From an uncultured Methanosarcinales archaeon (GTDB lineage: Archaea > Nanobdellota > Nanobdellia > Woesearchaeales > DSVV01): a DNA stretch of 64,000 nt. The stretch's first letter is position 1; each line of letters opens with the position of its first letter. Positions 20,227-56,733 of this stretch are shown in pieces. The position numbers and the translations under genes are program-made. A model generated the notes under the pieces. That model saw nothing but the letters and a program-made list of their open reading frames with translations. It had not been told where the DNA came from and made no database searches. The stretch is from assembly GCA_964390375.1 (NCBI GenBank), contig CAYMIF010000001.1, positions 45,460 through 109,459 of the forward strand, read 5' to 3'.

Positions 20227-23200
20227 ATGAGAGGAATCAGATCAGAAGGTGATTTGAACCGGAGCAGGATCTCCTTTGAAAAAAGCAGTCTTCCAGTCAT
20301 GTGGGTAGACAGCAGTGCGAAAGTACTTGATGCCAATGATTCTGCATGCTCAAGCCTGGGTTACAGCAGAAAAGAGCTAAAAGATATGCATGTGTATGAT
20401 TTTGATATCCGTTGGGACAAAGAGAAGATTCTTTCAGAAGCACTGGAAAAGCTCAGAGAAAACAGGTCCATGACCTTCGAGTCGGTCCATCAGAGAAAAG
20501 ACGGTTCTAGATATCCTGCTGAGATAACATGTACTCTGTTCATTTGCAAGGGAAAGGAACTTATTTTCTGTTTTATCAAGAATATCACTGACCTGAAGAA
20601 GTCTAGGGAGATCTTGAGGAAAAGGTCAGAGAAGCTGAAGAATATCGTCGAGCATGCTAATGAAATCTTTTATGTACATAACACTAACCATATCCTGACA
20701 TATCTTAGCCCGCAGTGCAAGCAGATCTTTGGATATACTCAAGAAGAGATGAAAGTGAAATGGACGGATCTCAATACTGAAAATCCTCATAACAAGATAG
20801 GATATGAGTCAACCATGAAAGCGATGAGAACGGGCAAAAGACAACCTCCTTACCAGCTTGAGGTCAGGCACAAGTCAGGAAAAAAAATCTGGATAGAGAT
20901 CGATGAATCACCTCTTAAGGACAAGGACGGCAAAGTGATCGGGATGACTGGTGCTGTGCGTGACATAACAAAAAGAAAAAAGTCACTGAACATGCTGATG
21001 GTCAGACATAAGTTGAGCAGGGAGCTTAATTCTGCTTCAGGCCTAAAAGATGCTCTCAGAATCTGTCTGAAATATGCTATTGATATATCTGAGATGGACT
21101 GCGGCGGCATATACCTGAAGGATCCTGAGACTGGTAATTTCTGTTTGGAAGTGCATCGGGGGCTGTCTGACAGATTCATAGACAGGATAAGGGAATTTCC
21201 ACCAGATACGCCTAGCGCTAGGATGATATATAAAGGAGAGCCGATCTATTCAAGCTATGATAGGATGGAGAGCCTGACCGGTCCAAAATTAAGAAGTGAG
21301 GGTCTCAAAGCAATAGCAGCAATACCTATCAGGCATAAAAAAGAGATCATCGGGAGCCTGAATGTATCTTCGAGGAGCATAGAAAAACCTTCTTCTGAAT
21401 CAAGGATAGCACTTGAAATAATAGCTGCAGACATAGGTGATGCTCTTTTCAGATTCAGGGCAGAAGAAAGACTCAAACATAGCGAGGAGAAGTATAGGGC
21501 ATTGATCGAGAATATTCCTGTCGGCGTGTATACTGCAAAGCTTGATCCGGATAGCACCTATATTTACATCTCTCCAAAGGTCCTGAGGATTCTTGGAGTC
21601 AGCCAGAGTTATGTGAAGAGGAATCCTGATTTCTGGGTAAAACATGTTCATCCTGAAGACATGCCTTTGATCAGGACCGAAGTCGAGAGTACCAAGAAAA
21701 ATCATAAGCGTTTCTCCATGGAATACAGGATGTATCGGCACGACGGAAAGATGATCTGGGTGCATGATGAGGCAAACCAGATAGAAAGAAAAAGCGGTGA
21801 TGAAGGGGTAATGCAAGGTTTTATCGAAGACATAACTGACAGAAAGGAATCTGAGAGATCAATACAAATAGAAAAGGAGAAGGCGCAGAATTATTTCAAT
21901 GTCGCTGGGATTATCATGGTCGGGCTTGAGTCTGACCAAACCGTATCCATGATCAACAAGAAAGGATGCGAAACCCTAGAGCTCCCGGAAAATGAAATAA
22001 TCGGGAAAAACTGGTTCGATAATTTCATTCCAGAGGATTTCAGGAAAAAAGCGAGAGCAGCATTCTCCTGCCTTATGAAAGGCGATACTGAACCTTTTGA
22101 GTATGGTGAGAACCCAATAATCACGAAATCAGGAACAAGGTTGATAGAATGGCGTAATGCAATTCTTAGGGATGAGAATGGCGTCATCAGCGGCACAATC
22201 AGCTCTGGATTCGATGTCACAGAGAAACGCATGGCAGAAGAGGAAATCAAGCGCTCACATGAATTCCTCAAAGGCGTTATCAACTCTGCTTCAGACCTAA
22301 TATTCTCCGTCGACAAAAAAGGAGAGATAAACTCGTGGAACGAATCGATGGAATATGCCACTGGCTACCGGGCAAAAGACATAATCGGCAAGAACATCTT
22401 TGAATTAGATATATTCGTAGATACACAGATATTCCATAGCATAATAAAAGAAGAAAACATAATCGAAAGGAAAATACAAACGCCGGCTATGACAAGAAGC
22501 TCGAAAGTGCATCTTCTTGAGCTTACTTTGCCTATAATAGAGGCAATTGACAGGACACAAGGATATCTGTTTATCGGAAAGGACATAACTTCGTCTCAAA
22601 AGCTAAGAAAAGCAATAAGATTAAACCATTCCTATCTTCTTGTGGATACTGATGATGGTCATCATGAGTATTTTGAATCTCTGCAGAACTATCAGGGCAA
22701 GATCTATGTCACACGCAATATCGAACCAGAGGCCAGGCAGAGGCTTGAGAATCTTGGGGTCAAGGTATTTGAAATGGACCATGAGATGATGGCAGAAGAG
22801 GGTCTTGATAAACTTTTCAAGATGCTGCGCGAGTGCTCTGGACGGGGAAAGTGCATAATCCATATGGACAGAATAGACTATCTTATCGCAAGATTTGGAT
22901 TCAATCGGGTCATCAACCTGATCTATGACATAAATGACCATGTCAAGAAGAATCCTGCCACCTTCATACTGCATGCAGACTCAAATACATTGGATGAAAA
23001 GAACCTTCATCTTCTGCAGGCCGAGTTCCTTGAAATGCCTAAATCTGAACATGAGCTGGATGAACTGGAATCCGAGCTTTTAGATATATTAAGATTCATC
23101 TCAGAGAATACAGTGAAGAAGATCGCAACATCATTCAAGCAGGTAAAGAAGAGGTTCAACATATCCAATGTGACTACCCGAAAGAGGATCACCGAACTGG

Positions 23201-23301
23201 TCGAACTTGGATATATCGAAATCAAGAAAAAAGGCAGGTACAAGTACCTTATATTGACCAATGCAGGACAGAGACTTGTTTCTGACAATGAAAAAATTTA
23301 A
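20227..23301 (+). CDS. multi-domain sensor/regulator with several PAS domains, a GAF domain, a DUF835-like module and a C-terminal HTH
   Basis: PAS-like segments repeat (for example ...NIVEHANEIFYVHN...DITKRK and ...ENIPVGVYTA...DITDRK). A GAF-like region follows. The C-terminal NHSYLLVDTDDG...KIYVTRNIEPE...CIIHMDRIDYL resembles DUF835. The gene ends with the HTH-like TTRKRITELVELGYIEIKK. No histidine-kinase motifs were seen. Confidence 0.65.
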   Translation: MRGIRSEGDLNRSRISFEKSSLPVMWVDSSAKVLDANDSACSSLGYSRKELKDMHVYDFDIRWDKEKILSEALEKLRENRSMTFESVHQRKDGSRYPAEITCTLFICKGKELIFCFIKNITDLKKSREILRKRSEKLKNIVEHANEIFYVHNTNHILTYLSPQCKQIFGYTQEEMKVKWTDLNTENPHNKIGYESTMKAMRTGKRQPPYQLEVRHKSGKKIWIEIDESPLKDKDGKVIGMTGAVRDITKRKKSLNMLMVRHKLSRELNSASGLKDALRICLKYAIDISEMDCGGIYLKDPETGNFCLEVHRGLSDRFIDRIREFPPDTPSARMIYKGEPIYSSYDRMESLTGPKLRSEGLKAIAAIPIRHKKEIIGSLNVSSRSIEKPSSESRIALEIIAADIGDALFRFRAEERLKHSEEKYRALIENIPVGVYTAKLDPDSTYIYISPKVLRILGVSQSYVKRNPDFWVKHVHPEDMPLIRTEVESTKKNHKRFSMEYRMYRHDGKMIWVHDEANQIERKSGDEGVMQGFIEDITDRKESERSIQIEKEKAQNYFNVAGIIMVGLESDQTVSMINKKGCETLELPENEIIGKNWFDNFIPEDFRKKARAAFSCLMKGDTEPFEYGENPIITKSGTRLIEWRNAILRDENGVISGTISSGFDVTEKRMAEEEIKRSHEFLKGVINSASDLIFSVDKKGEINSWNESMEYATGYRAKDIIGKNIFELDIFVDTQIFHSIIKEENIIERKIQTPAMTRSSKVHLLELTLPIIEAIDRTQGYLFIGKDITSSQKLRKAIRLNHSYLLVDTDDGHHEYFESLQNYQGKIYVTRNIEPEARQRLENLGVKVFEMDHEMMAEEGLDKLFKMLRECSGRGKCIIHMDRIDYLIARFGFNRVINLIYDINDHVKKNPATFILHADSNTLDEKNLHLLQAEFLEMPKSEHELDELESELLDILRFISENTVKKIATSFKQVKKRFNISNVTTRKRITELVELGYIEIKKKGRYKYLILTNAGQRLVSDNEKI

Positions 23302-23327: not shown

Positions 23328-23549
23328 ATGGGAATTATCCAGAAATGGCTGCTCAAAAGAGCACAAAAGAAAGCAAAAGATGAGGAGAAAAAGCATATAC
23401 TCACTGATTCTGATATCAAAGAGGAAGAAAAGGAATTCCTTGATGAATCCATGCAACTGAAGAGCATGATAACTGATAAGAAAAAGCGAAAAACAGGTGC
23501 AAGAAAGAAAACAGCCAAGAAAAGCAAAAAAGGGAAAGAAAAGAGGTAA
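23328..23549 (+). CDS. possible small lysine-rich protein
   Basis: 73-aa ORF that is very K/E-rich. It overlaps the upstream region of the next gene. It could be spurious. Confidence 0.2.
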   Translation: MGIIQKWLLKRAQKKAKDEEKKHILTDSDIKEEEKEFLDESMQLKSMITDKKKRKTGARKKTAKKSKKGKEKR

Positions 23550-23553
23550 AAAT

Positions 23554-24198
23554 ATGAAGATCAGAATCGAGGCCACAAAAAAGGAGATGATATACTTTTA
23601 TTGCACTGTCGCGCTTCTTTTTGCAGTGTCTTTTCTTGTCGGCGGCTTCATGGTCGGCCACAGCGCCGGGCTGATAGGGGATATCGATCTTGCTTCAATC
23701 CCTGACAACAGCATAGGTTCTGTGAAGATCAAGGATCTTGATGTGCAGTCTGTTGACATAGCTGATAATGCAGTCGTAGACAGGCTGATACCAGATGATT
23801 CAATAACATCAGCAAAGATCGCTCCGAACACAATAACCGGTGCAGATGTCCAGGACAATTCTATAACTGCTGCGAAAATTGTGAACGTGGACTGGACTGA
23901 TATAATTAATGAGCCGGCAAGCGCAAGCTATGGCGGAATAGGCTACCGGCTTCCTTCTGCATCTTATACATGCACCCATCCGACACAAGGGAATGTACTA
24001 GCAACTCCAGATGATATCAAGATATTTGACAGGAGAGTCGATGTTATATATGAATGGTTCAGCTCAACAGTCTCTGGCTGCCCGGGTTCTGGAACATATG
24101 ATGAATATTACTGCTCAATCAGCTGGCGCGGGGCAGACGGCTGGATCGGTCCGGCAGGGTGCAGCTGTGGGACTTCTGCTGCGATACCCTGTCCATAG
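23554..24198 (+). CDS. membrane-anchored Cys-containing protein with D-x-S-I-x-S-A-K-I type repeats (paralogue 1)
   Basis: The start was taken at MKIRIEATKK. TM helix FYCTVALLFAVSFLVGGFMV. Repeats read IPDNSIGSVKI / IPDDSITSAKI / QDNSITAAKI. YTCTHP is present. The C-terminus is GCSCGTSAAIPCP. Confidence 0.45.
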   Translation: MKIRIEATKKEMIYFYCTVALLFAVSFLVGGFMVGHSAGLIGDIDLASIPDNSIGSVKIKDLDVQSVDIADNAVVDRLIPDDSITSAKIAPNTITGADVQDNSITAAKIVNVDWTDIINEPASASYGGIGYRLPSASYTCTHPTQGNVLATPDDIKIFDRRVDVIYEWFSSTVSGCPGSGTYDEYYCSISWRGADGWIGPAGCSCGTSAAIPCP

Positions 24199-24207
24199 AG
24201 CAGACGG

Positions 24208-24861
24208 TTGTTCAAATTGGAAATAGAGATCACCAAATTCAAATTTGTCATGATTTTACTAGTCCTGCTACTTGTTGGACTGTCAGTTGCGATAATCGGC
24301 CAGCCTACTGTCGGGCACAGGGCCTCTGATCTTGTCGGATTTGTTCCAATGTCTTCTCTTCCAAATTTCACTTCAGCAAAGATAATTGACATGGGGCTAG
24401 ACAGCATTGACTTTGCAGGCGATTCATTCACTACAAGCAAATTCTTAAACAGTGTTGTGAAATCCGACCATATCAGTAACCTGACCCTGACAGAAGATGA
24501 TTTCCTTTCCATAGGTGCAAATGACATTGATTCTGTCTTGTGGAGCACAGTGCAGAATGCACCTGATCTTGACTATGCAGTATTCGGGTTCACTGTGCCG
24601 CTCAATTATACATGCAACCATCCTGGCTATCCAGGAATCGAATTTGCTGAACCTAATTCTGATGATGTATATGTCATCTATAACCAGAGAATCTCAATCA
24701 AATACAACTGGACCACGTCAAATGCTTCCAGCTGCACAGGGAATCCTTCAGCGAATATAACAGAAGAAGGATGCGTTGTCTATTATCAGGGCAATCTGGG
24801 CTTCAATCCTGTTGGTTGCGACTGCAGTGTTCATGTAGAAGGGGCAGGGACATGTCCATGA
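24208..24861 (+). CDS. membrane-anchored Cys-containing protein (paralogue 2 of 23554..24198)
   Basis: The architecture is the same: TM VMILLVLLLVGLSVAII, then VGHRAS, YTCNHP, and a C-terminal GCDCSVHVEGAGTCP. Confidence 0.45.
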   Translation: MFKLEIEITKFKFVMILLVLLLVGLSVAIIGQPTVGHRASDLVGFVPMSSLPNFTSAKIIDMGLDSIDFAGDSFTTSKFLNSVVKSDHISNLTLTEDDFLSIGANDIDSVLWSTVQNAPDLDYAVFGFTVPLNYTCNHPGYPGIEFAEPNSDDVYVIYNQRISIKYNWTTSNASSCTGNPSANITEEGCVVYYQGNLGFNPVGCDCSVHVEGAGTCP

Positions 24862-24869
24862 ATCCCTTC

Positions 24870-25571
24870 TCAGACGCTTTTTAGGACCTGTGTTATGTCT
24901 TCTCCTCTGACAGAGCAGCCTGAGAGCTTGACTGCCCAAAGCACACCTTCCAAGACTGCTTTTCTGAGATCCGGGACGATCTCATTCTCGTCTTTCAGCA
25001 TATACCTGTCCAGAAGCCCGAGATCGTATGCTACCTTTGCAAGCTCGAATGATCTTATGACCCTGAGGCCTTTGAGCCTTTTTGAGATTGATCTAAGATT
25101 CTCCTTGTTGGTGCTGATATTGGTATGCAGCTTTCTTCTAAGTCTCTTTTCAATCAGTTTCGGATTCTCTATCAGGTCTCTTGTTGTCCTCTCGTCTATC
25201 ACTATAGCCTGAGAACCTTTTTTTATGGCTGCTGCTATGACCTCTATCTCACCAGGATGCACTATCTTTATCCAGTTGCCATGCGCGCTGAAGGTGGTGT
25301 TTGCAATGTCAAGCAGCTCTTTTGCCTCATCAGATATAGTCTTGTCTTCCAGAGTCTTAATTATCCCCCTTGATATGAGCGGCAGCACCTGAAGCGCTTC
25401 GAACTTGTATTTTTTCGTGTTCAGAGGTCTTTCTATCAATTCTTTGTAGACTGCCCTTGTTATGAAGAAATCTCCGTCAAACCTTTTCTGAAGCGGCTCA
25501 ATCAGCCACAGGAGGTTGTTGAGCGTGAGGCTTATTATCGGGCCTGTGTCGAATATCAATGATCCTGCCAT
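24870..25571 (-). CDS. PIN-domain protein (putative toxin-like nuclease)
   Basis: The start was chosen at MAGSLIFDTGPIISL. Acidic PIN motifs are present: LIFDTG, FITRAVYKEL and QAIVIDERTTRDL. About 80 aa follow the PIN core as a C-terminal extension. Confidence 0.5.
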   Translation of the reverse strand: MAGSLIFDTGPIISLTLNNLLWLIEPLQKRFDGDFFITRAVYKELIERPLNTKKYKFEALQVLPLISRGIIKTLEDKTISDEAKELLDIANTTFSAHGNWIKIVHPGEIEVIAAAIKKGSQAIVIDERTTRDLIENPKLIEKRLRRKLHTNISTNKENLRSISKRLKGLRVIRSFELAKVAYDLGLLDRYMLKDENEIVPDLRKAVLEGVLWAVKLSGCSVRGEDITQVLKSV

Positions 25572-25576
25572 ATCTT

Positions 25577-26116
25577 TCACCTGAACAATGATTCTGCGAA
25601 CCTTATCCTTTCCATCACTGTGACCTGCTCGTCGAACCTGTCTGAGAGCTTTGTCTTGCCGATGTAGTTCATGAGCTCCCATTGGCTGAGACCAAGGATA
25701 TCTGCTGTCTGGCCGAGGCTGATCCCGTGGTCGTAGATCTTCGAGCCTTTCTTGATCTCTGCACGGTTGATTATATGCTGGATGTAAAGGTTCATCTTCT
25801 TATCTATCCTGGAGATCGTTTTGACTATCCTTTCGATAGTCAGGTCATATTTCTTGAAATTGCTTTTCCGAAGGTCCTGAAGGGCTTTCTTCAGAAGAGG
25901 GATCAGCTTTGGCCTGATCTTTTTGAGGCGGTCGCCCAGCTTCGAGAGTGCGTAGATTATGACCGCGATTGTCACAGATTCCTTGTCCTGGAAGATAGAT
26001 GCATTGTGGATTGTGTGGTTGGAGATGTCTGCCAGTGCATGGGTGTCATCTTTCTCTATCTTCTTTATGGTGTTATGAAGTATGTTTTGCAGATCCGCCC
26101 TTACTATGTCGTTCAT
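25577..26116 (-). CDS. UPF0175-like HTH protein (putative antitoxin partner of the PIN protein) with an extended N-terminus
   Basis: The C-terminal YDHGISLGQTADILGLSQWELMNYIGK resembles the UPF0175/COG2886 motif (ISLGKAAELAGMSRWEF) that pairs with PIN-like COG2405 proteins. It lies 5 nt upstream of the PIN gene. Confidence 0.4.
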   Translation of the reverse strand: MNDIVRADLQNILHNTIKKIEKDDTHALADISNHTIHNASIFQDKESVTIAVIIYALSKLGDRLKKIRPKLIPLLKKALQDLRKSNFKKYDLTIERIVKTISRIDKKMNLYIQHIINRAEIKKGSKIYDHGISLGQTADILGLSQWELMNYIGKTKLSDRFDEQVTVMERIRFAESLFR

Positions 26117-26235
26117 ATGGTGATTTTATTATCTTTGGAATATTTAAAGGTTTGGTCGTCTCTCTAGATATAGAAGGCCAGGATTTAACTGTTGCTTTCG
26201 TCAAAAATTTTATAAAGCCGGATTGATTATTCAAT

Positions 26236-27414
26236 ATGATGAAAAAGAAGCTATTGGACCTGATGAGGGGAATGGTGCCTCTGAACAAGAAACTCTCAGA
26301 ACAACTTGATTCGGTTTCGGGGCTGCTCTCTTCGAATGAACTAAAAGAGCTGCGCAGCAATCTGAAGACCAAAAGAATCAGGATGGAGGCTGCTTCGTTT
26401 GATGTGTCACCTGATATGGTAGCTGAACCCCCTGCTTATCCCAGGTTCCTGACAAAGCATGATGAGCTAGCAGGCCTGTGCGAGAGGATAAACAAGAAGA
26501 TCTCTTCAGGCATAAAGAGCAGGGTATTCTCAGAATTCTCAAAAAAAGCAAAAGATGTGATACCTAAGTTCATAGGCCGCGGAATTGTCGGGCTTGATCT
26601 TGTAAAATGTGCATGCGCGATACAGCTGTTTTCAAAGGACCCTTTCCATATACTCTGTCTTGGGGACCCGGGAACTGGCAAGACTGACATAATCAGGTCT
26701 GCTGCCGGCCTGCATCCGATCAATGCATTCGGACTTGGCTCAGGCACATCTGGCTCCGGCCTGACAGTCACTGTAAGGGGCAATGAGGTGCAAAAAGGAC
26801 TGCTTGCCATGGCAGACGGCGGAATCTGCGCTATCGACGAGCTGAACCTAATGGAGCAGAAAGACCGGGCATCGCTGTATAACGCTATGGAGAAAGGATT
26901 CTTTACATATGACAAAGGAGGGAAGCATTACAAGTTCGATGCCAGGATACGCGTTCTTGCAACAGCTAATCCTAAAGGTGACCGCTTCGACGGAAAGACC
27001 GTCAATACTCTGAAGAAACAATTGCCTTTTGATCCTGCACTTCTAAGCAGGTTCCATTTGGTTTTCCTTATCAGGAAACCCAATCTTGAAGAATTCATGA
27101 AGATAAGCAAGAAAATCGTCTCAGGCAAGAAGAAGAGCGAGCAGCCAGGAAACATCAGTTTCATTTCTGACTATATAGAGTTCTGCCAGGAATTGGAAGT
27201 GGAGATGCCTGCCAAATATTCTGAGCAGATAGTGAATTTCATCGCAGAAATCAAGAAGAACGAAGAGAAATATCTGATCGAAATCTCTCCGAGAACTGTT
27301 GTCGGGCTTTCGCGAATGGTCATGGCTGCTGCCAGGATGAGGTATGACAAAACAGTCAAGGATGAGGATGTGTGGCTAGTCATGGATATACTTAAAAGAA
27401 GCCTGGAAATCTGA
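26236..27414 (+). CDS. MCM-family AAA+ ATPase lacking the N-terminal OB/Zn DNA-binding domains (mini-MCM)
   Basis: Walker A ILCLGDPGTGKTD. Walker B GICAIDELNLM. MCM-specific DRASLYNAMEKG (compare DRTSIHEAMEQQ). Sensor-1 VLATANP. Arg finger LLSRFHLVFLI. Lid EISPRTVVGLSRMVMAAARMR. The 392-aa protein has only about 100 aa ahead of the ATPase core. Confidence 0.7.
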   Translation: MMKKKLLDLMRGMVPLNKKLSEQLDSVSGLLSSNELKELRSNLKTKRIRMEAASFDVSPDMVAEPPAYPRFLTKHDELAGLCERINKKISSGIKSRVFSEFSKKAKDVIPKFIGRGIVGLDLVKCACAIQLFSKDPFHILCLGDPGTGKTDIIRSAAGLHPINAFGLGSGTSGSGLTVTVRGNEVQKGLLAMADGGICAIDELNLMEQKDRASLYNAMEKGFFTYDKGGKHYKFDARIRVLATANPKGDRFDGKTVNTLKKQLPFDPALLSRFHLVFLIRKPNLEEFMKISKKIVSGKKKSEQPGNISFISDYIEFCQELEVEMPAKYSEQIVNFIAEIKKNEEKYLIEISPRTVVGLSRMVMAAARMRYDKTVKDEDVWLVMDILKRSLEI

Positions 27415-27488
27415 ACCATATATCTTCTTTGACCGTCAATTACGAAACCTTTTTATACTATGTTAAAAATGTTAATATCAGAGGGGAA

Positions 27489-28118
27489 ATGATAAAATTA
27501 TTCAAAAAACTGGTCAATCGGCTGTTTCGAGACCTTTTCCGCGAAAAAAAACAGAGAAAGCTCGGGCTATATGGACCTCCGAACGGCGGTAAGACCACGC
27601 TTGCTAACAGAATATGCATGGACTGGCTCGGGCAGGAGATGGGAAAGGCCTCAAATGTTGCGCACGAGACCCGTGAAATCCAGATCAAAGAACAGATCAC
27701 GATAAAATCAAAAGGAAAAGAACTTGCATTCAATCTCGTCGATACACCTGGAATCGCGACAAAGATAGACTATGAGGAATTCTTGAAATCCGGAATGAAA
27801 GAGAAGGATGCGAAAAAACGAGCAAAAGAAGCGACAAAGGGAGTTATCGACGCGATAAAATGGCTTGACAACATGGATGCAGTGATCGTTGTCCTGGATT
27901 CTACAATGGACCCTTATTCACAGGTAAATATCACTATAATCGGAAATCTTCAGGCACGTGACATACCTGTCATGATCGTCGGAAACAAGGTCGACCTGAA
28001 GAAATCAAACATCAAGAAATTACAATCTGCTTTCCCACAGTATGAAGTCGTGGGAATATCTGCTAAGTACGGCAATAATATCGAGGATTTTTATGAAGCA
28101 CTCCTCAAGATTGCCTAA
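27489..28118 (+). CDS. small GTP-binding protein (G domain only)
   Basis: G1 GPPNGGKTT. G3 DTPG. G4 NKVD. G5 SAK. The start was chosen at MIKLFKKL. It lies 15 nt downstream of the MCM-like gene. Confidence 0.65.
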   Translation: MIKLFKKLVNRLFRDLFREKKQRKLGLYGPPNGGKTTLANRICMDWLGQEMGKASNVAHETREIQIKEQITIKSKGKELAFNLVDTPGIATKIDYEEFLKSGMKEKDAKKRAKEATKGVIDAIKWLDNMDAVIVVLDSTMDPYSQVNITIIGNLQARDIPVMIVGNKVDLKKSNIKKLQSAFPQYEVVGISAKYGNNIEDFYEALLKIA

Positions 28119-28127
28119 AAAAGAACG

Positions 28128-28544
28128 GTGAATCGCATGCTGACACTACAATTCGTACCATATTCAGAGATTGAAGCACTGAATTCTTCCAAGAGAATAA
28201 AGAAGCTTCTTGGAATTGTCAAGGACAATAATATAGTGCTTCTCGAAGGCAGGCTGCGAAAGTCAGAAGAAACTGATCTGATCAAAAGGACAATGGAGGA
28301 GATCAGCGACGATTTCAAGGGAATCGAGCTTGGTGTCATATTTCCAGATAAAAAAGAGATGAAATTCTTTGCGATGCTCAAAGACAAGTTCATCAAGATG
28401 GTGCTTGGAGATCGCCAGGGATTCACTGTCATCGGTCCTGCGACAATCGTCAAGGAAATCAAGCAGGATCCTGGCAAGCTTCAACTCCTGACCCAAAACG
28501 AGCCCAGAAGCAGGAAAAAGGAGAGGAAGAAGAAAGGCAAATAG
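28128..28544 (+). CDS. DUF2073-like archaeal conserved protein
   Basis: 138 aa. This is my recollection of the DUF2073 family, which usually neighbours a GTPase and a Zn-ribbon protein in archaea. It has a basic C-terminal tail. Confidence 0.4.
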   Translation: MNRMLTLQFVPYSEIEALNSSKRIKKLLGIVKDNNIVLLEGRLRKSEETDLIKRTMEEISDDFKGIELGVIFPDKKEMKFFAMLKDKFIKMVLGDRQGFTVIGPATIVKEIKQDPGKLQLLTQNEPRSRKKERKKKGK

Positions 28545-28607
28545 GACAGCCCATGAGCGCTGATTTCTTCAAAAGCTTTAAATAGATAGCTGGATTCTAT
28601 TCATTCT

Positions 28608-29003
28608 ATGCCACACCAATGCGTCAGATGCGGAACATTCTATGAAGACGGAGCAGGAGAGATTCTAAAGGGCTGCTCATGCGGAGCGAAGCTTTTCTTC
28701 TATGTAAAACAGGAGAAGCTGGACAAGGCCAGGCAGATGTCTGCCAAGCTCAGCGATGACGAGAAGCATCAGATCGAGAAGGATGTCCTGGATATCGTCG
28801 GGATGGAGCCTGACGAGGACAGCTCAGTTGTCCTTGACATAGAATCAGTCAATGTATATCAGCCCGGCAAGTTCGAGATAGACCTCGTAAAGCTGTTTGA
28901 CAAGGACAAGCCGCTTGTCTATAAGCTTGAGGAAGGGAAGTATGTCATCGATGTGGCTGAGAGCTTCATGAGATCGAAAGATTATATTGAGGAGAAGAAG
29001 TGA
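28608..29003 (+). CDS. Zn-ribbon protein (DUF2072-like)
   Basis: CVRCG...CSCG forms a four-Cys ribbon at the N-terminus. 131 aa. It follows the DUF2073-like gene. Confidence 0.45.
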   Translation: MPHQCVRCGTFYEDGAGEILKGCSCGAKLFFYVKQEKLDKARQMSAKLSDDEKHQIEKDVLDIVGMEPDEDSSVVLDIESVNVYQPGKFEIDLVKLFDKDKPLVYKLEEGKYVIDVAESFMRSKDYIEEKK

Positions 29004-30197
29004 TCATTTGCTGCTCATTATTTCTATCATATCCCTGTGCTGAAGGACATGGTCCTTGGCTATGGGCATCTTCTTTCTGACATCAATCGCCTTTATGAAA
29101 TTGTCGCCGATGTCTGAATGTATCTTGTAGGCGAAATCAAGTGCTGTAGCACCCGCGGGCATCAGGAAACAGTCCGGGATTATGTTTCCATGCTGGTCTG
29201 CAAGCTTGCTGACTCCTCCAGGGAATATCGCCTTGTAGCCAAGAAGGTCAAAGACTGCCTTGTCCAGGACATCCTGTACACCTGAAGAGCCGAACTTTTT
29301 TAAGACATTGGCTTTGATGAACTCGAGCGCGGCTTTCTGCTTGTCTGATAGGTCTCCTGTTGCCTGAAAGTCATCTGAGCCCGGGGTGTAGTCTATCAGC
29401 TTATGCTTGGAGGCCTCCTTTAGGGCAAGCTCGGATTCTGCAGAACAGCCCACTATTATCGTGTCTGGGAACTTTTCCTTTAGCCTGTCCAGGTTCTCTG
29501 CACCTGTCTTTGTGTCAACCTTGTTGGCTGCGATTATCATCGGCTTTGTCTTTTTCCGAAAGTCTGATATCAGGGACTTGAGCTCGTCCTCTGTCCAGGT
29601 GTTTATCGGCTTTTCTCTGAGGCTGAGAGATTTCATGCTCTGCTTTACCATGTCCTCTGTGAGCATGAGGCCGGAGAACTGCTTGGCTATCTCCTTTTCA
29701 GGGTCCTTGTGCTCCTGAGCCAGTGTCCTTGAGAAACGCTCCCATACCTTCTTGAATATGGACAAGTACCATTCCTCAAGCTCTTTTTCCAGAAATCTTA
29801 TGTCATTTGCAGGATCATAGGAGCCTGGCTCTACCGGCTCTCCCTTCTCATTCGTGCTGCCGGATGCATCGACCACATGGATCAGGGCGTTTGCCTGCCT
29901 GAGGTCGTCCAGGAACTGGTTTCCCATGCCCTTGCCTTCATATGCTCCAGGCACCAGACCTGCTACGTCTATCAGATCAATCGGCACGAACCTTGTCTGG
30001 CCTGTACAGAAGCCTTCTCTTGGATCGCATTTGGTGTTGAATTCCCTGCATACTGCCTCTACGCGCACGAAACTGATCGCGTGATTGGGCTTAATGGTCG
30101 CGAAAGGATAGTTCGCTATCTCTACGTCCATCAGGGTCGCTGCCTTGAAGAAAGTGCTCTTGCCTGTGTTTGGTTTTCCGACTACACCGATAAGCAT
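29004..30197 (-). CDS. Obg-family GTPase, YchF/OLA1-like, with a C-terminal TGS domain
   Basis: G1 VVGKPNTGKSTFF. G3 DVAGLV. A long helical insertion precedes G4 NKVD. The TGS-like C-terminus reads ALDFAYKIHSDIGDNFIKAIDV. Confidence 0.65.
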   Translation of the reverse strand: MLIGVVGKPNTGKSTFFKAATLMDVEIANYPFATIKPNHAISFVRVEAVCREFNTKCDPREGFCTGQTRFVPIDLIDVAGLVPGAYEGKGMGNQFLDDLRQANALIHVVDASGSTNEKGEPVEPGSYDPANDIRFLEKELEEWYLSIFKKVWERFSRTLAQEHKDPEKEIAKQFSGLMLTEDMVKQSMKSLSLREKPINTWTEDELKSLISDFRKKTKPMIIAANKVDTKTGAENLDRLKEKFPDTIIVGCSAESELALKEASKHKLIDYTPGSDDFQATGDLSDKQKAALEFIKANVLKKFGSSGVQDVLDKAVFDLLGYKAIFPGGVSKLADQHGNIIPDCFLMPAGATALDFAYKIHSDIGDNFIKAIDVRKKMPIAKDHVLQHRDMIEIMSSK

Positions 30198-30297
30198 CTT
30201 ATTGCAGCGAGAACAATGGAGTGTATTTATATTTTTTGTAAAACTGGGCTATTATGATTGCATTAGATTTAAATAGTATGTTCCATGCAATTAAAAT

Positions 30298-31029
30298 ATG
30301 CTCAAGGCAGATTTCCACATACATATATCTGAAGATCCTTATGACCGGGATGCTGCGCGTTATTCAGGAAAGGAACTCATAGACCGTGCTGCAGAACTTG
30401 GATATGATGTCTTGTCAATCACCATGCATTCCACTTATTTTGAAGATTTTCGGCTGACAAAATATGCCCGCAAGAAAGGTATACTTCTGATACCTGGTAT
30501 TGAACTTCGAGTTTCTGACCGGCATGTGCTTATAATCAATCCAGATCCTGATCAGCTCTATCATGTCAAGAAGCTATCTGATCTGAGGAAAATCAAGGGA
30601 ACCGGGTGCCTGATCATGCCAGCTCATCCTTATCTTTATTTTGGAAAAGACCGTGAAAGAGAGCTTGAGGTGAATGCAGAACTGTTCGATGCCATCGAAT
30701 TCTGCCATTTCCATCTCGGACCTATTGATTTTAATAAAAAGACCGAGAATTTCTCAAGAAGGCATAAATTACCAATGTTTGGATCCTCTGACACACATCT
30801 TAAATGCCAGTTCGGAACCACTTATACGATGATCGATTCAAAAAAAGATACTGATTCAGTGATATCTGCTGTGAAAAAAGGAAAAGTCAAGGTGGTCTCT
30901 CCTGATCTTAAAATAACAATCTTCCTTAGAATATTCCTGCGGTTCAGCATCTCTATGCTGAGAACCATTGTGTTTGGGAAGAAGAAACAAACTGAGAGAT
31001 ATTCTGTTATAAAAAAGGGCTTTGTGTAA
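30298..31029 (+). CDS. PHP-domain metal-dependent phosphoesterase. Its last codons and stop lie inside a MITE terminus
   Basis: DFHIHIS, MPAHP and GSSDTH are PHP His/Asp ligands. The stop codon sits within the inverted repeat of the element at 31018-31196. Confidence 0.6.
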   Translation: MLKADFHIHISEDPYDRDAARYSGKELIDRAAELGYDVLSITMHSTYFEDFRLTKYARKKGILLIPGIELRVSDRHVLIINPDPDQLYHVKKLSDLRKIKGTGCLIMPAHPYLYFGKDRERELEVNAELFDAIEFCHFHLGPIDFNKKTENFSRRHKLPMFGSSDTHLKCQFGTTYTMIDSKKDTDSVISAVKKGKVKVVSPDLKITIFLRIFLRFSISMLRTIVFGKKKQTERYSVIKKGFV

Positions 31030-32232: not shown

Positions 32233-32336
32233 GCCCCCGTAGCATAGTAGCTATTGCGGCAGACTTGTATCATTTTGAATCATAGATTCGTTTTTTAGAA
32301 ATCTGCAGGTCGTGGGTGCAAATCCCACCGGGGGCT
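32233..32336 (+). tRNA. intron-containing tRNA, anticodon read as TGT (Thr), with a ~31-nt intron after position 37
   Basis: Acceptor stem GCCCCCG/CGGGGGC. Anticodon stem GCAGA/TCTGC. Loop CTTGTA followed by intervening sequence 32270-32300. T arm GTGGG-TGCAAAT-CCCAC. Discriminator T. No encoded CCA. The isotype call depends on where the intron is placed. Confidence 0.7.
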
Positions 32337-32349
32337 TGCTATCTTCTTG

Positions 32350-35300
32350 CTATGCCTTCTTTAAAGATTCATATACCTTGTGCTTATCCTTTGCATTGCT
32401 GAGATATAAAGCATCCTTTAAATGGGTCTTTGACCAGCCCTTCTTCAGAAGATTTTCTGCCAATTTCCTGTGATCCTTGGTCTTGGTGTTGAAAAGGAAG
32501 ATTATTGGCTTTATGTTCTCCAGCTCCTGGGTATATCTTTTCACTGCGTCCTTTGTGAAGTAATGATGCTTGAGTATCCTTTCAGAGCCGTGAGAATGCA
32601 GGATGTTGGTGTATGCATAGTATTTGCTGAACTCCGAGTATATCTGGCTTGCAGCCTGGGGGCTGAGCCCTGCTTTTGCTATCTCTTTTCCAAGCATCTT
32701 CGGCGAACAGTGGACCCTGAGCAGGCTGAAGGCAACATCGTCCGGGTCCTTTTGGACCATGAGCTCCTGGATCATCTCAGAAAGAACCTTTGAAAGCCCC
32801 TTGCTGTAATATTCCTTGTATCCTTCATCTATCAATATGGTGTATGATATGAGGTTGATGTCATATGAATGATGTATCAGATAGTTTATCAGATGATGAG
32901 GGTCTGCCTTCCTGTCCATGCCTTTGTCAAGCTCTTTTTTTATCCTCTTCTGCTGGTCCTTGTATCTTTTTTGTCTTAATTTTTCCGGCGTGAACCTGGA
33001 ATGATGGAGGAAGTTTGCTATCTCAGACTTGTCAAAAAGCCAGATGTGATACTTGTGGAACCCAAACTCGTTGTTGGCATGAAGCTCGCTTATGAATGCA
33101 TAGAGCATGTATATGTGCAGCCAGATGTAGACTGCTATCTTCATCAGATCCAGGATGTAGTCAAAAAGCAGGTAGTTGAGAGTGAGATCGGGTATGACCT
33201 TGCTGTAAAGTATGATTGAATGATAGATGAAATTCTTCAGGAAGAACAGTGTGTAGACGAAGACCAGCAGTATCGCTATCGTGACAGTCTTTATCTCGAT
33301 GATCTTTTTATGCTTCCTTGTCACAAGATATGCCCATATCCCGACAGTCGCTGAAATCAATGAGAGTGCAAGGATGTTGAGATTGAAGCTAATACTGCTG
33401 AAGTACATGCTGAAATAGAACAGGATTGCTATTGCAGGGATGACATGAGTTATGATATCCATCAGGTGGTTGTGCTTTCTTATCATGTGGGCCACTATGA
33501 ATACAAGCAGGATGCCTGCAATTATCATCCCCGGGATGTCAGGCCTTATCGCTTCTGGCAGTGTCTTTATTACAATCTCGTTTCCGACCACAAGATTGCT
33601 GTTGATCTTCTTTATCTGAAATATCGGCGTGAGTATGAAGAAGACCAGGGATACTGCAAATGATATCAGTGTCCATCTTGAGAACGAAAGCCTCTTTGGC
33701 TCTACCGTGTCCTGGGCATTGCGGTAGAATATGTGTGAGTAGATCTTGAACGGTATGTAGAACAGGATGAGGATCGCGATCATATTCATTACATAAATGA
33801 GGTATGTTGCCAGAGGGTCTGCGGTGCTCTGCATAATGAGGTCGTAGACAGACGGAGACTGGGCAGTAAAGCCCTGTGCGTATATCTCTGGCTGAGGCAT
33901 GAATGGCAGGAGGCTTGAGAGTATGAAGATTATGAATCCAAGGCCGATTATGTAGAATATCCTGATGGAGATGGATACCCAATATGTTCCCTCGTCCTGG
34001 AGCATGACGATTATGTCGCGGACAAAATCCTCGATAGCGTTGAATGCTTCAGTAAGCGAACTGAGGGTGAGTTTTCTGTATCTTATGACATGGTAGATCA
34101 TGAATATCAGGGCGACTGAAATGAGGATTATGGAATCAGTCGCTATGGAGAATCCTTCGATTATCATCTGGAAGAAGATGAAGAACGTGATTATGATGAT
34201 TATGATGGTCTTTATGATCCTGAATGGCGAATAATTGCCTTTGAGAAGGTTGGATGCGAACGAACTCTTGTCCTTGTTCCTTATTATGAGCCTGTATGAC
34301 AATATAGAGATTATGACAAACAATGAGATCAGGGCGATGCCTGTGTAATCCTGGGTCATGTCCATCAGATACAGGATGGTCTTTACAGCCCTTCCGAAGA
34401 ATCCGTACTTTCCGAAGAGGCCTATGAATATCTCCTCAAGCGCCGGCAGCCACCAAAGAGAGCAGAATATGAGGATCAGGGCAGTCGTTATCCTGCTCCT
34501 CTTTCCGAAGAGACGCTCTGAGATGTTGGTCTTTAGTATGAGGATGAATGCCAGCAGAAGCGACATCATCTTCTTGACAAAGTCCAGGTCTCCGAGCATG
34601 CCCATGATGTCGAGGATGCTCAAGGCCAGGAGAAAGATGAAATAGAGCAGGATGAATTCCCTTATGCTCCAGACCAAGGGCTTTAATATAGGGTGCTTAT
34701 TTGCGTGGTCTTTTAGCTTTCCTATGTTTGTTGTGTTGACCAGGACTATTATAACTATGAATACAAGGAAGAAATATGCAAGGGTGAGGTAGTCCAGTAG
34801 CTTGGGAGGCTCGCCGAATCTTGTGACAATGCTTGCAACCAGGGCAGTGACTGTCACCTCTTCGTCACAGTTTATGTCCTCGACCTGCTTTATTTTAAGC
34901 TTCAGCTCCATCTCATCGTCAATCTCCTCGAAATGCACGAATATCTCTGGGTCAGCTTTTGTTATCGTGAAATTGAAGTTCGCGTCAATGACCTGCTCTG
35001 CATATTCATGGGTTAGCATCTCGACTAAGCATTTGGGGATGTGGATTGGCAAACCTACTCCTACAGCTTTCTTGTTGTCGTCCCTGGGCTTTATCTTGAC
35101 TGTGGCCTCAGCAGAGCCGTTGTCATAGATGACTGTTGTGGTGTTGGTCTGGATAGCCTGCTTTGCGAGCTCCTTTGCCTTGTATATCTCGAAATCATCA
35201 AGATAATCATCTATCCTGCTCTGCTCCTTTATCATGAGCTCATAACTGATCCTTCCTATCTCTTCCTCAGTCATGGACTTATTTATCGTGTAGTTGGTGT

Positions 35301-38300
35301 GGATCTCCTCGTAAGGCCCGAGGTCTCCGAGGGCAAATTCTATCTTTGGATCCCGCTGGATTATGGTGAAATTGACATCTGAGGAGATGTGGTCTGTTGT
35401 GTTGATTATGTCCTTTGGTATCGTTATCCTCAGCCTGGCCTGAGCTTTTTTCAGCGGTGTCGGGTTCCTGATAGTATCTATTATCTCTGTGTGGTTCTCG
35501 TGAACCCTGAATCTTGTGTGCTTCTTTATCTGGTTTGAGAGCTCGTAGGTGATGGAGTAGTTCTGTATTATGAATGCAGGCGGTTCTTTGATCTTCCGGC
35601 CAGAAGAATCGCTGTCATCATCCTGCTCTTCTGGGGTGGTCTCTTCTGCTGGCTCTTCTGTCTGGGGTATGATGTCTGGCGAGCCTCCTCCGAATGAACT
35701 GCTGCCGGAGCTGACAGATGAGCCTTCGTCTTCATCTTCATCTTCACCTACACATGTGCAGGTGTTTGTGCCTGAATGAGCCCATGTGCCTCTGTTTCCG
35801 CAGACTCCGCCTGTTATTTTTCCGCCATCTTCGTCATCACAGTCGAAGATGTCTATGTTCGTGCAGATCCCGGCGTAGGCTATACCTATCTGGCCGTCGT
35901 CGTCATTGTCCCAGTCCTCGTCTGCCAGCTGGTCGCAGTCATTGTCGTATGAGTCGCAGATCTCTGCTGTACTGTAGCTTACCTGCGCTGACCAGGCGCT
36001 CTTTTGGTGGCTTGAGTCGATGGACTGGACCTGGACATAGGCGCATCGCGGAGGTATGTCGAGAGATATCTCCTGCAAAAGCTGCATGTTTCCGAAGTAG
36101 CCCTGAGGCGGGTTGGTCGAAAGAGGGTTAAGGCTAGAGAGGATGTTTTGGTTGGTCGGGCTGGAGCCTATCTTTAGGTTATAGTAAAGGACAGGGGATT
36201 CTGCATCTGAGCCTGCGGTCCAGTTGATTTTCATGCGGCTGTTGTTGTATGAGATGTTTACTGCTGTCGGCGGAGCGGGGAGCGTGTTGTTCTTTAGTTC
36301 ATTTGCATCAGAGCGATAGATGCGGGTGTTGGCAGACTGGGATTCGTTGAAGCCGGTGTAGAAGATGTCGAGGTTGTTGTCGTTGTTGTAGTCGGCGAAT
36401 GCGAGGGAGCCTGCCCATGATCCGTCGAAGGTGTTGAATGTGTCTTCGATGAAGGTTGTGCCGTTGCTGTAATAAAGTTTTGTTATTGAATCTGTCCATG
36501 TGCCTCTTGTCGTACCTGCTAATAATAGGTCAAGAAGGCCGTCGTTATTGTAATCTCCCAGTGTGAGGCTTCCTTTCCAGACTGCAGTCAGGTTCTGGGA
36601 CCACGCCGGCGAATATGTGAGGTTATTTGCGTTGTTTTGGTATACCTTTGCTATCTTATCTGTACAGTTAGCTGGAGAGCTGGTTCCTGAACTGCATCCA
36701 ATGAGAACAATGTCCATGTATCCGTTGTTATCTATGTCACCTGATGTAATGTGGCCGAATTTCACTCCTGTCAGGTTTTGGGTGTTTGTGAATGATGCTG
36801 CTTGATTGTTCATGTATACTTTGGTCGTGAATTCGTCATCTGCATTGCCATACCTGCCAGAGACAATGATATCTGTGAAATTGTCATTATCAAGATTTAC
36901 TGCGTTTACTGAACATTCTGTGACACCCATGAAATTTATCACTGATTTTGAGAAGGAATCTCCGTTGTTTGTGTATAATGATGTCGAATAGGCGGCACTA
37001 TCGCTGGTTCCACAAGTGATGAGGTCTATGAGCCCGTCATTGTTGTAGTCCAGCCATGCGTGGGAGGAATAATATACAGGATTTATTCCGTGGGAAGAGT
37101 CATCATAGGTCCAGCCGGATTGGTATCTGATGATGTAGAGTTTTTTTTCAATTGGATCAATCTGTCTTTGACCTGAGGTGATTATGTCGTATGTTTCGTC
37201 ATTGAAAGGATCTGCCAAAGAGATTCCACCGTACATTAGGTCAGGGAGATTTATCTCATCATGAGGTGTGAAAAATGCATTGGTGTTTGAATAGACATAT
37301 CCTTTGGTTGTTGTTTTATCCAATACTTCTGGACCTGATATGAAAATATCATGATAATGATTTGAATCCAGGTCAGCTAACAATAATGAGCTTCCGAATG
37401 ATGTACCATACACTCCCTGCTCATCCAGGTCGTATGCTGTGGAATTCGGCTTGACTGTTATCGAAAATGTGTGGTTCAGTGTCTCGTATCCAGACATGTT
37501 GCATCTGATCGTGACCTGCTTGTCTCCAAGGGATGTGAAATTGTAATCAATAGTATGGACTGCTCCTGTGTAGGACATGTTGTGCCATGTGCTATCCAGG
37601 CTTATGGTGCAGTTTTCTGATATCGGAAGGTGGGATGTCGTGTTTGAGTAGTTTGCAGTAAAGGTGACAGTTTGGTTTATCATGAGGCGGGATGGTGAAT
37701 AATCTGTCTCTAGAAGGCTGTTTGATGCAGCAGAATAATTGCTGAATCCAGAGACATTGAATGTGAGATTTCCATTAGTGTAATCAATCACTGTGCAGTC
37801 TGAGCAGACCTGGTCGTTTCTGAGGATTGCCGGAATCGCAGAGAAATTCAGGTTGAATATAGTTATGTTGGCTCTTCTGTTCAGGCCCTGGGCAGCGGAA
37901 ACATCTATGTCTATATTATTCTGTGAGATGTTCACTATCGAGTTTAAGTCTAGGTTGGAGACGTCGATATTTTCATTAAACATTATCATGCCGAATCCTG
38001 GCAAGCCGATCGATGCGGCTGAGACATTGGATACATCAGAGACTTCAGAGAAGTTTGTTGTGAGGGAGTTGTAATAGTTTGAGAATATCGGTTCAGAAGA
38101 CCTGTTGAGAGTGATTGTGAGGGCTGTGTTGGATGAGTGCGTGTAATCCATGTTGTATTGGTTGTATCCGGATCTTTGGAAGTAGATGGTGTAGTTTTGT
38201 ATTGAGGATGTTCCGTTGTTCCTGTCGCTTGTGAGGACAAGCCTTGCCTTGCCTGGACTGTCTGTTGCGGTGTCGTAATGCATTCGGTTGTCTGTATCGT

Positions 38301-45446: not shown

Positions 45447-45460
45447 TAATAAGAAAAAAA

Positions 45461-46498
45461 TCAGAGGTCTTCCAGACCTCCCTGCACTACCATGAATGAA
45501 CATTCTCCGTCTGCCAGGTTCGGCGCATCTATGAGCTTTGCGACACGAGTGCCTTTCTTTCCCTTTCTTAGATAGATCCTGAAAGTAGATGCATGCGCGA
45601 CAATGTGCCCTCCGATCGCCTGGGTAGGATCACCGAAGAACTGGTCCGGCTTTGCCATGACCTGGTTTGTCACATAGACGCAGATGTTGTATGTGTCTGC
45701 AAGCTTCAGGAGAGTGTGCATGTGCTTGTTGAGCTTCTGCTGGCGCTCGGCGAGGGTTCCTCTTCCGATGAACTCTGCCCTGAAATGAGCTGTCAGGGAG
45801 TCGACGATTATGACCTTGACGTTTAGGTTCTGGTCCTTTATCAGCTGCTCTACCTTCTCGGCAAGCAGCATCTGGTGGTCTGAGTTGTAGGCCCTTGCGA
45901 CTTTTATGTGCTTGAGAACCATGTTCTCATCCAGACCTGCACCGACAGCAAGCTGCTTTATCCTCTCAGGCCTGAAAGTGTTCTCTGTGTCTATATATAT
46001 CGCATAGGGGTCCTTTTCTCCTTTGAGCTTCTGGACGTTGACCGCAAGAATATGACCTATCTGGGTCTTTCCTCCGCCGAATTCTGAAAAGATCTCTGTT
46101 ATCGCTCCTGTCTCGATGCCTCCTTCCATGAGATCATCGAATGCTTTTGAGCCGGTAGATATCTTCTCGACCTTCTCCCTTCGCTTGAGGATGTCATCTG
46201 CTGCCTCAAAGCCCATGTCAAGAGCATCCCTTGAAGCATTTATCATCTTCCTTGCTGCAGCCTCGGTTATGCCTGCAGCATCTGTGAGCTCGCCAGGCGA
46301 TGCTACTGCTATGGACATCAGATTATCATAGCCTACCTGCTTGAGCTTGTCTGCGGTTGCTGCACCTACGCCCGGAAGGTCTATTATGTCCTTTATCTTC
46401 CCTTCCTGAGCCTGCTCAACCGATTCCTCAACTTTCTCTTCATCTTGTTCCTTCATCATAACTTCCTCGACCATCTGTGGTTTCTTTTTAGCTAACAT
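45461..46498 (-). CDS. radA: DNA repair and recombination protein RadA, with a short acidic N-terminal extension
   Basis: HhH region [12 protein letters not shown]. Walker [10 protein letters not shown]. Walker B VKVIIVDS. It is typical of archaeal RadA. An AT-rich TATA-like box sits about 25 nt upstream. Confidence 0.9.
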
Positions 46499-56400: not shown

Positions 56401-56733
56401 CAGGATGAGTTGAAAAAAGAATCATCAGATGATGAAAAGGAAGGAAAAACAGAACATGATGCCTCTTCAGATAATGATGAAAAGACCGATGGCTCGGACG
56501 CGGACGCCAATGTGCGAAGAGAGGATGGATCTTCAGAAGAAGAGGCAGATAATGATGATTTCAAACAGACAGAACCAGATGATGAAGAAAAGGATGAGGA
56601 AAAATCATCTGATGCACAAGAGGAGTCCAAAAGACCTCAGACTATAGAAGAAAAAGAAGACAAGAACCCGGAAGAACAAAGAAAACCTTCTTTTTTCGAT
56701 GAGAAAGACGAATCTGACGAAGATTACATATGA
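53500..56733 (+). CDS. gyrA: DNA gyrase subunit A with ~95-aa acidic N-terminal and ~180-aa acidic C-terminal extensions
   Basis: Active-site region [10 protein letters not shown]. GyrA-box-like QRRGGRG. Beta-pinwheel repeats follow. The termini are dominated by D/E/S. Confidence 0.9.

Follow-up and report, generated by a model that had tools for sequence, protein, structure and literature searches.

The occurrence of a gene for an MCM-type ATPase directly upstream of a conserved archaeal GTPase operon raises the question of whether the two loci encode one molecular machine or two neighbouring modules. We addressed this question in a 64,000-nucleotide (nt) stretch of archaeal DNA (hereafter referred to as the window), which corresponds to positions 45,460 to 109,459 of contig CAYMIF010000001.1 (GenBank assembly GCA_964390375.1) and is titled 'uncultured Methanosarcinales archaeon', with a GTDB lineage in the Woesearchaeales. 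Four co-directional open reading frames (ORFs) on its + strand, at 26236–27414, 27489–28118, 28128–28544 and 28608–29003, are separated by gaps of 74, 9 and 63 nt. An earlier sequence-only reading had described them, with coordinates, strand and spacing that the ORF list confirms throughout, as a tight unit of a truncated MCM, a small GTPase, a DUF2073-like protein and a Zn-ribbon protein. Here we report that the first gene (hereafter mini-MCM) encodes a new architectural variant of the known MCM family, and that the other three are an already known triad, named OapABC, ArvABC or DipABC in successive studies (hereafter dipABC). We assign a probability of roughly 0.6 to the reading that these are two neighbouring chromosomal modules in conserved synteny, each with its own promoter, and that they do not make up an obligate machine of four subunits, with their adjacency being a frequently retained synteny of this DPANN (Woesearchaeales-type) lineage.

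The mini-MCM (392 amino acids; 26236–27414, +) matches the Pfam families MCM (7.8e-37, residues 104–296) and MCM_lid (2.9e-9, residues 309–390), and the motifs GDPGTGKT, IDELNLM, DRASLYNAMEKG, ATANP and LLSRFHL, all quoted in the sequence-only reading, can be read in its translation. A profile of the family retrieved MCMs only from the PDB sequences, with Sulfolobus MCM (3F9V) at the top (2.5e-47); the first aligned position pairs query residue ~76 with MCM residue ~255. An AlphaFold2 (AF2) model calculated from a 35-sequence alignment has a pLDDT of 90.3, and the top 50 matches of this model in a Foldseek search against the PDB are all MCM chains. The protein thus comprises a family-specific α/β module (residues 1–75), an MCM AAA+ core (residues ~76–296) and an MCM lid (residues 309–390), and is without the N-terminal helical/Zn/OB domain and the C-terminal winged helix. 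The NCBIfam MCM model NF040949 aligns to it with 138.6 bits (2.1e-40), far under the cut-off of 940 bits for membership in that full-length family. The proposal that gene 1 is an MCM core devoid of the N-terminal OB/Zn region was therefore correct.

The catalytic apparatus of the mini-MCM is fully conserved. In 35 homologues, each ~50% identical to the window protein, the Walker A K149, the Walker B D201 and E202, the PS1 K227, the sensor-1 N245, the arginine finger R272 and the sensor-2 R353 are invariant. The structural model contains β-hairpins at residues 178–187 (the h2i position) and 222–235 (PS1), and in the alignment with Sulfolobus MCM, K227 falls on the PS1 lysine of the AKAG motif. 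Because the catalytic residues are invariant and both hairpins are present, gene 1 encodes an MCM-clade AAA+ ATPase with an intact MCM motor. It shares with canonical MCM (Sulfolobus, PDB 3F9V/6MII) both Walker motifs (A and B), the h2i-type hairpin, the PS1 lysine, sensor 1, the SRF-type arginine finger and the sensor-2 arginine of the lid, whereas it is far shorter (392 against roughly 600–700 residues) and its h2i region is reduced by ~6 residues. Since the inter-subunit arginine finger and both DNA-binding hairpins are conserved, we infer that the mini-MCM most likely oligomerises into a ring that travels on DNA, or perhaps on RNA. Such a ring ATPase would act in chromosome maintenance.

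The family of the Mg-chelatases and YifB (ComM), a related AAA+ clade that the sequence-only reading had named as the alternative identity, was rejected on score. Pfam Mg_chelatase matches only 66 residues of the mini-MCM (181–246; 2.1e-7, 31 bits), and MCM scores ~100 bits higher. YifB TIGR00368 reaches 16.6 bits (E 0.0023) against a cut-off of 362 bits, with the YifB models together at 15–17 bits. Unlike these weak local matches, the MCM models cover both the ATPase and the lid.

The N-terminal 75 residues form an α/β module with no detectable fold relative. A profile of this module found 102 cluster representatives among 1.84 billion, nearly all of mini-MCM length or shorter fragments, and essentially no other architecture carrying the module among these representatives. 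The module is thus confined to this ~390-residue, DPANN-labelled family. The OB/Zn domain of canonical MCM is used in double-hexamer loading and DNA binding; the module might replace this loading domain and serve as a tether to a partner or substrate.

The best 120 homologues of the mini-MCM are all 377–425 residues long, with 79–100% query coverage and 46–57% identity except for one at 90%, and all but one of the named ones are labelled Woesearchaeota, Nanoarchaeota (Nanobdellota) or other DPANN. By scanning one genome per GTDB species we found 172 relatives, and the loci of the best 80 of these 172 were used for neighbourhood analysis; their informative labels are likewise all DPANN, with four records saying just 'archaeon'. 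On a neighbour-joining tree the window mini-MCM groups with that of locus L009, a complete 1.84-Mb chromosome labelled Woesearchaeota. Several 'binchicken' metagenome-assembled genomes (L007, L008, L010 and ~20 others) are titled 'uncultured Methanosarcinales archaeon', as is the window, and interleave with Woesearchaeota on this tree; we suspect that these titles are a placeholder or wrong taxonomy. In the literature searched, neither the mini-MCM family nor its linkage to Dip is described, in agreement with the sequence-only reading.

The three downstream genes are OapABC, which is the same triad as ArvABC and DipABC. The GTPase gene (dipA; 27489–28118, +) encodes 209 residues from its ATG, with an in-frame TTG also present at 27429. 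Its product matches Pfam MMR_HSR1 (2.1e-13), contains an amphipathic helix at the N terminus (MIKLFKKLVNRLFRDLF), the P-loop GPPNGGKT and the motif DTPG, and is encoded directly upstream of dipB; it was assigned by comparison with published descriptions of Haloferax volcanii DipA/ArvA. The second gene (dipB; 28128–28544, +) belongs to PF09846 (OapB, formerly DUF2073; 5.4e-17, 62.1 bits against a cut-off of 27 bits). Its listed start is a GTG, and the true start is likely the ATG at 28137, where an independent gene call on an identical contig from another sequencing run begins; with this start, the dipA–dipB gap is 18 nt. The third gene (dipC; 28608–29003, +) encodes a 131-residue protein with an N-terminal Zn ribbon and belongs to PF09845 (OapC, formerly DUF2072; 1.2e-21, 77.8 bits against a cut-off of 23 bits). 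Its C5, C8, C23 and C25 and a C-terminal PGKFE.DLV motif are invariant or nearly so among homologues. The three family assignments in the sequence-only reading thus hold, as does its view of the triad as a conserved archaeal neighbourhood; its statement that the function is unknown does not, since OapABC, ArvABC and DipABC are the same proteins, for which knockout, localisation and biochemical data exist.

These data come from Haloferax and, in vitro, from Archaeoglobus. Earlier work, as cited in the Arv and Dip papers, placed the Haloferax operon near orc1/oriC1 and characterised deletion mutants; in Pfam, DUF2073 and DUF2072 now bear the names OapB and OapC, for 'origin-associated proteins'. 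The Haloferax proteins became ArvABC in Mills et al. (2024) for their part in vesicle formation: deletion of the GTPase lowered RNA-containing vesicles ~threefold, and its overexpression raised them 3.5-fold. These authors found Arv homologues in 14 phyla, seven of them DPANN, with ArvB directly downstream of ArvA in 93% of genomes, and analysed downstream genes alone. He et al. (preprint, May 2026) described DipABC in Haloferax as a Min-like system that oscillates from pole to pole and places the FtsZ ring. According to these authors, DipA is a membrane GTPase bound through its amphipathic helix (with GPPNAGKT and DTPG in H. volcanii). DipB activates the hydrolysis of GTP, frees DipA from the membrane and binds DNA. 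The cargo, the Zn-ribbon protein DipC, inhibits FtsZ1 and measures 131.5 ± 19.6 residues outside haloarchaea. Loss of Dip yields minicells, and the Archaeoglobus DipA and DipB work in vitro. The Dip survey names just Nanohaloarchaeota among DPANN, 93% of DPANN genomes have been reported with FtsZ, and neither the Arv nor the Dip paper mentions MCM or analyses upstream neighbours.

The window operon resembles that of Haloferax volcanii (HVO_3014/3013/3012). The gene order GTPase, DUF2073, Zn ribbon and the very short spacers are the same, the window DipA is likewise a single-domain protein of <250 residues with an N-terminal amphipathic helix, GPPNxGKT and DTPG, and the 131 residues of DipC equal the length of non-haloarchaeal homologues. 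The operon neighbours differ, being orc1/oriC1 in Haloferax and the mini-MCM with a UPF0175-like/PIN-like gene pair in the window. Bacterial MinCDE is a functional analogue of the triad only: both combine a membrane NTPase, a releasing activator, an FtsZ-inhibiting cargo and pole-to-pole oscillation, but MinCDE has neither sequence homology to Dip nor an associated helicase-type ATPase. By analogy with Haloferax, the window proteins most likely use a GTPase cycle at the membrane to set the distribution of an FtsZ inhibitor, in which DipB would stimulate GTP hydrolysis and release DipA, and DipC would be the cargo that inhibits FtsZ. In locus L167 (6949–7582), which comes from one assembly of the sample behind the complete Woesearchaeota genome, the dipA gene call is split into pieces of 48 and 160 residues, possibly through a frameshift or an assembly error.

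Promoter-like elements divide the cluster into two putative transcription units. An A-rich, B recognition element (BRE)-like stretch with a TATA box (caaaaaTTTTATAAA, 26202–26216, +) precedes the mini-MCM; the TATA box itself (TTTTATAAA, 26208–26216) starts 28 nt before the ATG, and a TATA-like box lies at a similar distance in most of the 80 related loci. The mini-MCM transcript is predicted to be leaderless or near-leaderless because no Shine–Dalgarno (SD)-like sequence follows this box. A second promoter-like region occupies the 74-nt spacer upstream of dipA (27443–27486, +) and consists of a BRE-like CGAAA (27443–27447), the TATA box TTTTTATAC (27450–27458) and an SD-like GAGGGG (27481–27486). 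Most loci with adjacent mini-MCM and dipA genes have the same arrangement, with CGAAA, a TTATATAA-type TATA box and, a few nucleotides ahead of the start codon, an SD-like GGTG or GAGG. The mini-MCM–dipA spacers are 38–313 nt long, as against typically 1–25 nt for dipA–dipB and 1–50 nt for dipB–dipC. Counted with a strict regular expression, the BRE/TATA/SD motif occurs in 18 of 33 mini-MCM–dipA spacers, compared with a mean of 1.5 in shuffled sequences. It is also found upstream of dipA in 22 of 50 loci without the mini-MCM (shuffle mean 1.4), and the presence of the same motif in such loci argues that the dip promoter is independent of the mini-MCM. The simplest reading is a three-gene dip operon that would be transcribed from its own promoter, behind a separately promoted and probably leaderless mini-MCM gene. 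A scan with bacterial-type promoter and terminator models gave results at shuffle level, the model type being uninformative for an archaeon.

To determine how regularly the two modules occur together, we extracted ORFs from the 80 species loci, searched them with hidden Markov models (HMMs) built from the window proteins and their first matches, and tabulated the positions. In 32 of the 69 loci with enough downstream sequence to be informative, the mini-MCM is followed directly by dipA, dipB and dipC on the same strand; in two more, dip genes lie within 6 kb without adjoining it. The juxtaposition, which the sequence-only reading had allowed might be peculiar to this genome, is therefore not confined to it. 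It is kept at ~45–55% mini-MCM identity and, on the mini-MCM tree, occupies one large deep-branching clade and is scattered elsewhere, with at least eight state changes. Viewed from the dip side, the linkage is much rarer. Among 80 metagenome loci anchored on DipC (55–66% identical to the window DipC), 43 have informative upstream sequence, and the position directly upstream of dipA is taken by the mini-MCM in 4, by the UPF0175-like/PIN-like pair in 15 and by other genes or nothing detectable in 24. In the complete genome OY970338.1, the mini-MCM has the pair upstream and no dip genes nearby (L001/L009), and dipABC lies elsewhere (L167, from the same sample).

The gene for a YchF-related GTPase, convergent with dipC in the window (29004–30197, −; NCBIfam NF007171, 547 bits), served as a control neighbour that is not part of the system. 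It abuts dipC in 11 of the 46 dip loci in which it was counted and lies within 5 kb in 10 more (21/46). We know of no link of YchF to cell division. Conserved adjacency in this clade is thus weak evidence for functional coupling, because YchF is linked to dipC at least as often. Together with the separate promoters, the 4 of 43 dip loci with an upstream mini-MCM and the unlinked genes of OY970338.1 favour two separate modules and contradict the tight four-gene machine of the sequence-only reading. The adjacency may reflect a loose common theme of replication, segregation and division, by analogy with the orc1/oriC neighbourhood of the operon in haloarchaea.

Several observations weigh against the reading as separate modules. 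The commonest neighbours of the mini-MCM in the 80 loci are DipA (31), DipC (27) and DipB (25). The pair, the mini-MCM and dipABC are linked three ways, a pattern expected of a real functional neighbourhood. DipB binds DNA (He et al. 2026) and could thereby contact a DNA motor. The sole candidate stop signal in the mini-MCM–dipA spacer is a run of five T, so that transcription may read through from the mini-MCM into dipA.

These observations lend some weight to a single functional system, in which the mini-MCM would be a DNA motor working with the Dip oscillator, perhaps with the UPF0175-like/PIN-like pair, and might, for instance, clear or sense the chromosome at the division site through the DNA-binding DipB, in a nucleoid-occlusion or FtsK/HerA-like manner. 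Direct co-directional adjacency in 32 of 69 loci, dipABC as the top neighbour of the mini-MCM and the pairwise linkage of the pair, the mini-MCM and dipABC in varying order would all fit, as would the position of the same operon beside orc1/oriC in Haloferax, an ftsZ gene near the mini-MCM of locus L005 and a HerA-like DUF87 ATPase upstream of the mini-MCM in 17 loci. However, both modules have separate conserved promoters, dip genes are absent from the 6 kb around the mini-MCM in 35 of the 69 loci, only ~9% of dip loci have the mini-MCM upstream, Dip functions without it in Haloferax and Archaeoglobus, and the YchF–dipC linkage is at least as frequent. We therefore regard a single system as unlikely. 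Its fullest form, a previously unrecognised, DPANN-specific DNA motor that would couple replication or segregation to FtsZ-ring placement through the Dip oscillator, with the pair as further components, appears to us distinctly unlikely.

Other recurrent neighbours of the mini-MCM in the 80 loci are the PIN-like protein (25), the UPF0175-like protein (24), a HerA-like DUF87 ATPase of ~507 residues (17) and YchF (12). The HerA-like ATPase recurs upstream of the mini-MCM and is encoded directly upstream of dipA in L107 and L140; it possibly belongs to this chromosome-maintenance neighbourhood as well. In L003 (2097–5376) a Metallophos phosphoesterase gene adjoins the HerA-like ATPase gene. The mini-MCM of L005 (7676–8743) lies two genes from ftsZ in a locus without dip genes. 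A subclade comprising L019, L026, L029, L033, L039, L053, L063 and their neighbours has a gene for an AAA+ protein resembling the RFC large subunit upstream of the block (seven loci) and one for a single-OB-fold SSB/RPA-like protein downstream (eight loci); in those seven named loci, the UPF0175-like/PIN-like pair has moved downstream of dipC.

The RFC-like and SSB-like genes flanking the block in this subclade also bear on whether the mini-MCM could be the replicative helicase of these reduced genomes, replacing or backing up a canonical MCM, with the dip adjacency as a parallel to the haloarchaeal origin and orc1. The protein retains every catalytic and DNA-hairpin residue, a Sulfolobus MCM truncated at its N terminus reportedly retains helicase activity in vitro, and JGI names the family 'replicative DNA helicase Mcm' (NCBI has 'ATP-binding protein'). 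Nevertheless, the protein is without the OB/Zn domain and the winged helix and scores only 139 bits with the NCBIfam MCM model, as against the cut-off of 940 bits, and a DPANN archaeon of the Micrarchaeota has a canonical 601-residue MCM of solved structure (8q67). Neither the window ORFs scanned nor the annotated flanks showed an orc1/cdc6 gene, and no search for origin repeats was made. A second MCM-like ORF was likewise absent from the ~1.5 Mb of fetched loci, an absence that is not significant. We consider a replicative role improbable. A survey reports Mcm in all DPANN phyla from COG-level annotation; such annotation would not separate the mini-MCM from full-length MCM, so that its 'Mcm present' calls may include the mini-MCM, and genome surveys of DPANN should be read with this caution.

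The vesicle phenotype of the triad raises the possibility of a different partnership, in which the mini-MCM would load nucleic acid into ArvABC-dependent vesicles as a cargo-packaging motor, with relevance to exchange between DPANN archaea and their hosts. Deletion and overexpression of ArvA lower and raise RNA-containing vesicles in Haloferax, the mini-MCM is by homology a nucleic-acid motor, and one of its conserved neighbours, the PIN-like protein, may be a nuclease. The 2026 work, however, recasts the triad as a divisome-positioning oscillator whose loss gives minicells, an association of the mini-MCM with membranes is without support, and the linkage caveats that apply to a single mini-MCM–Dip system apply here too. 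Vesicle loading is thus highly improbable.

The divergent pair upstream of the mini-MCM was the basis of the proposal, in the sequence-only reading, of an accessory, defence or mobile-element context. Its first gene (25577–26116, −) encodes a UPF0175-like protein of 179 residues with a weak UPF0175-like C-terminal helix–turn–helix (HTH), and its second (24870–25571, −) a PIN-like protein of ~233 residues; the listed ORF of the latter runs to 25682, and we placed the start at 25571 because homologues begin at the methionine of MAGSLIFDTGP. Pfam gave no significant match for the window copies of the pair, only a sub-threshold UPF0175 match, which recurs at the same C-terminal position in four of five family members tested (E 0.0017–0.039). 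A PIN-like homologue in L001 carries PF11848 (DUF3368), and the N terminus of the window copy matches PADLOC PDC-S70 (5e-8). The two genes are real, as the sequence-only reading had said, and their PIN and UPF0175 character rests on weak matches.

Pairs of UPF0175 and PIN proteins are usually toxin–antitoxin modules, and 179 and ~233 residues are well above the usual size of such proteins. The window pair resembles UPF0175-antitoxin/PIN(DUF3368)-toxin pairs in its weak HTH, its DUF3368/PDC-S70-like N terminus and its tight spacing, but differs in being conserved in synteny over many species rather than patchy. It occurs with the mini-MCM alone, with dipABC alone and with both, sometimes downstream of dipC. 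This conserved synteny weighs against its being a mobile toxin–antitoxin or defence module.

The same synteny speaks to the possibility that the whole cluster belongs to a defence island or an integrated mobile element, for which the PDC-S70 match of the PIN-like protein and the existence of viral MCM helicases could be adduced. PADLOC gave no system-level match for the cluster proteins, only generic AAA and GTPase matches and PDC-S70 for the PIN-like neighbour, and neither the four genes nor the pair matched an integrase or defence-system model; the neighbours examined include no such gene. The mini-MCM matches the viral MCM family PHROG 10371 (3.9e-41) no better than cellular MCMs. Dozens of species keep the pair, the mini-MCM and dipABC in one chromosomal neighbourhood with YchF, PHP, tRNA synthetase and RFC-like genes, and base composition is uniform over the whole window, which is ordinary chromosome. 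A defence or mobile origin is thus hardly credible and is largely refuted by the conserved chromosomal synteny.

The function of the triad has emerged only recently, with vesicle formation reported in 2024 and the Min-like divisome oscillator in 2026, and the connection of Dip to the chromosome was explicitly left open, given the DNA binding of DipB and the position of the operon at oriC/orc1 in haloarchaea. The mini-MCM, which stands beside dipABC in many DPANN species, is a concrete and directly testable candidate for this connection. If a DNA motor were coupled to Dip, an archaeal division-positioning system would gain its first helicase-type partner; if the adjacency is synteny only, the finding reduces to a new MCM architectural variant beside a known operon. 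Independently of Dip, the family provides an example of an MCM motor that is encoded on its own by a cellular gene and passed on vertically.

The remainder of the window contains further chromosomal genes. A PHP-domain hydrolase gene and the YchF-related GTPase gene (29004–31029) form a conserved synteny block with dipABC in many related loci. An Rfam scan found nothing within the cluster and a single tRNA match in the window (32233–32336, +), which spans 104 nt, longer than a standard tRNA, and may contain an intron. A RadA recombinase (45461–46498, −) and a bacterial-type DNA gyrase A subunit (GyrA; 53500–56733, +) are encoded in the same window. A few kilobases upstream of the cluster lies a gene for a sensor protein of 1,024 residues (20227–23301, +) with multiple PAS domains, GAF, DUF835 and a C-terminal winged helix, DUF6293_C. 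It is followed by two tandem paralogous ORFs (23497–24198 and 24208–24861, +) whose products of 233 and 217 residues are 30% identical (E 2e-22); without a Pfam match, each has an N-terminal hydrophobic segment and a Cys-rich C terminus ending in CP. Two giant ORFs on the − strand encode proteins of 2,042 (4110–10238) and 2,757 residues (32350–40623), and a protein of >2,400 residues is also encoded near the dip operon of the related genome at locus L167.

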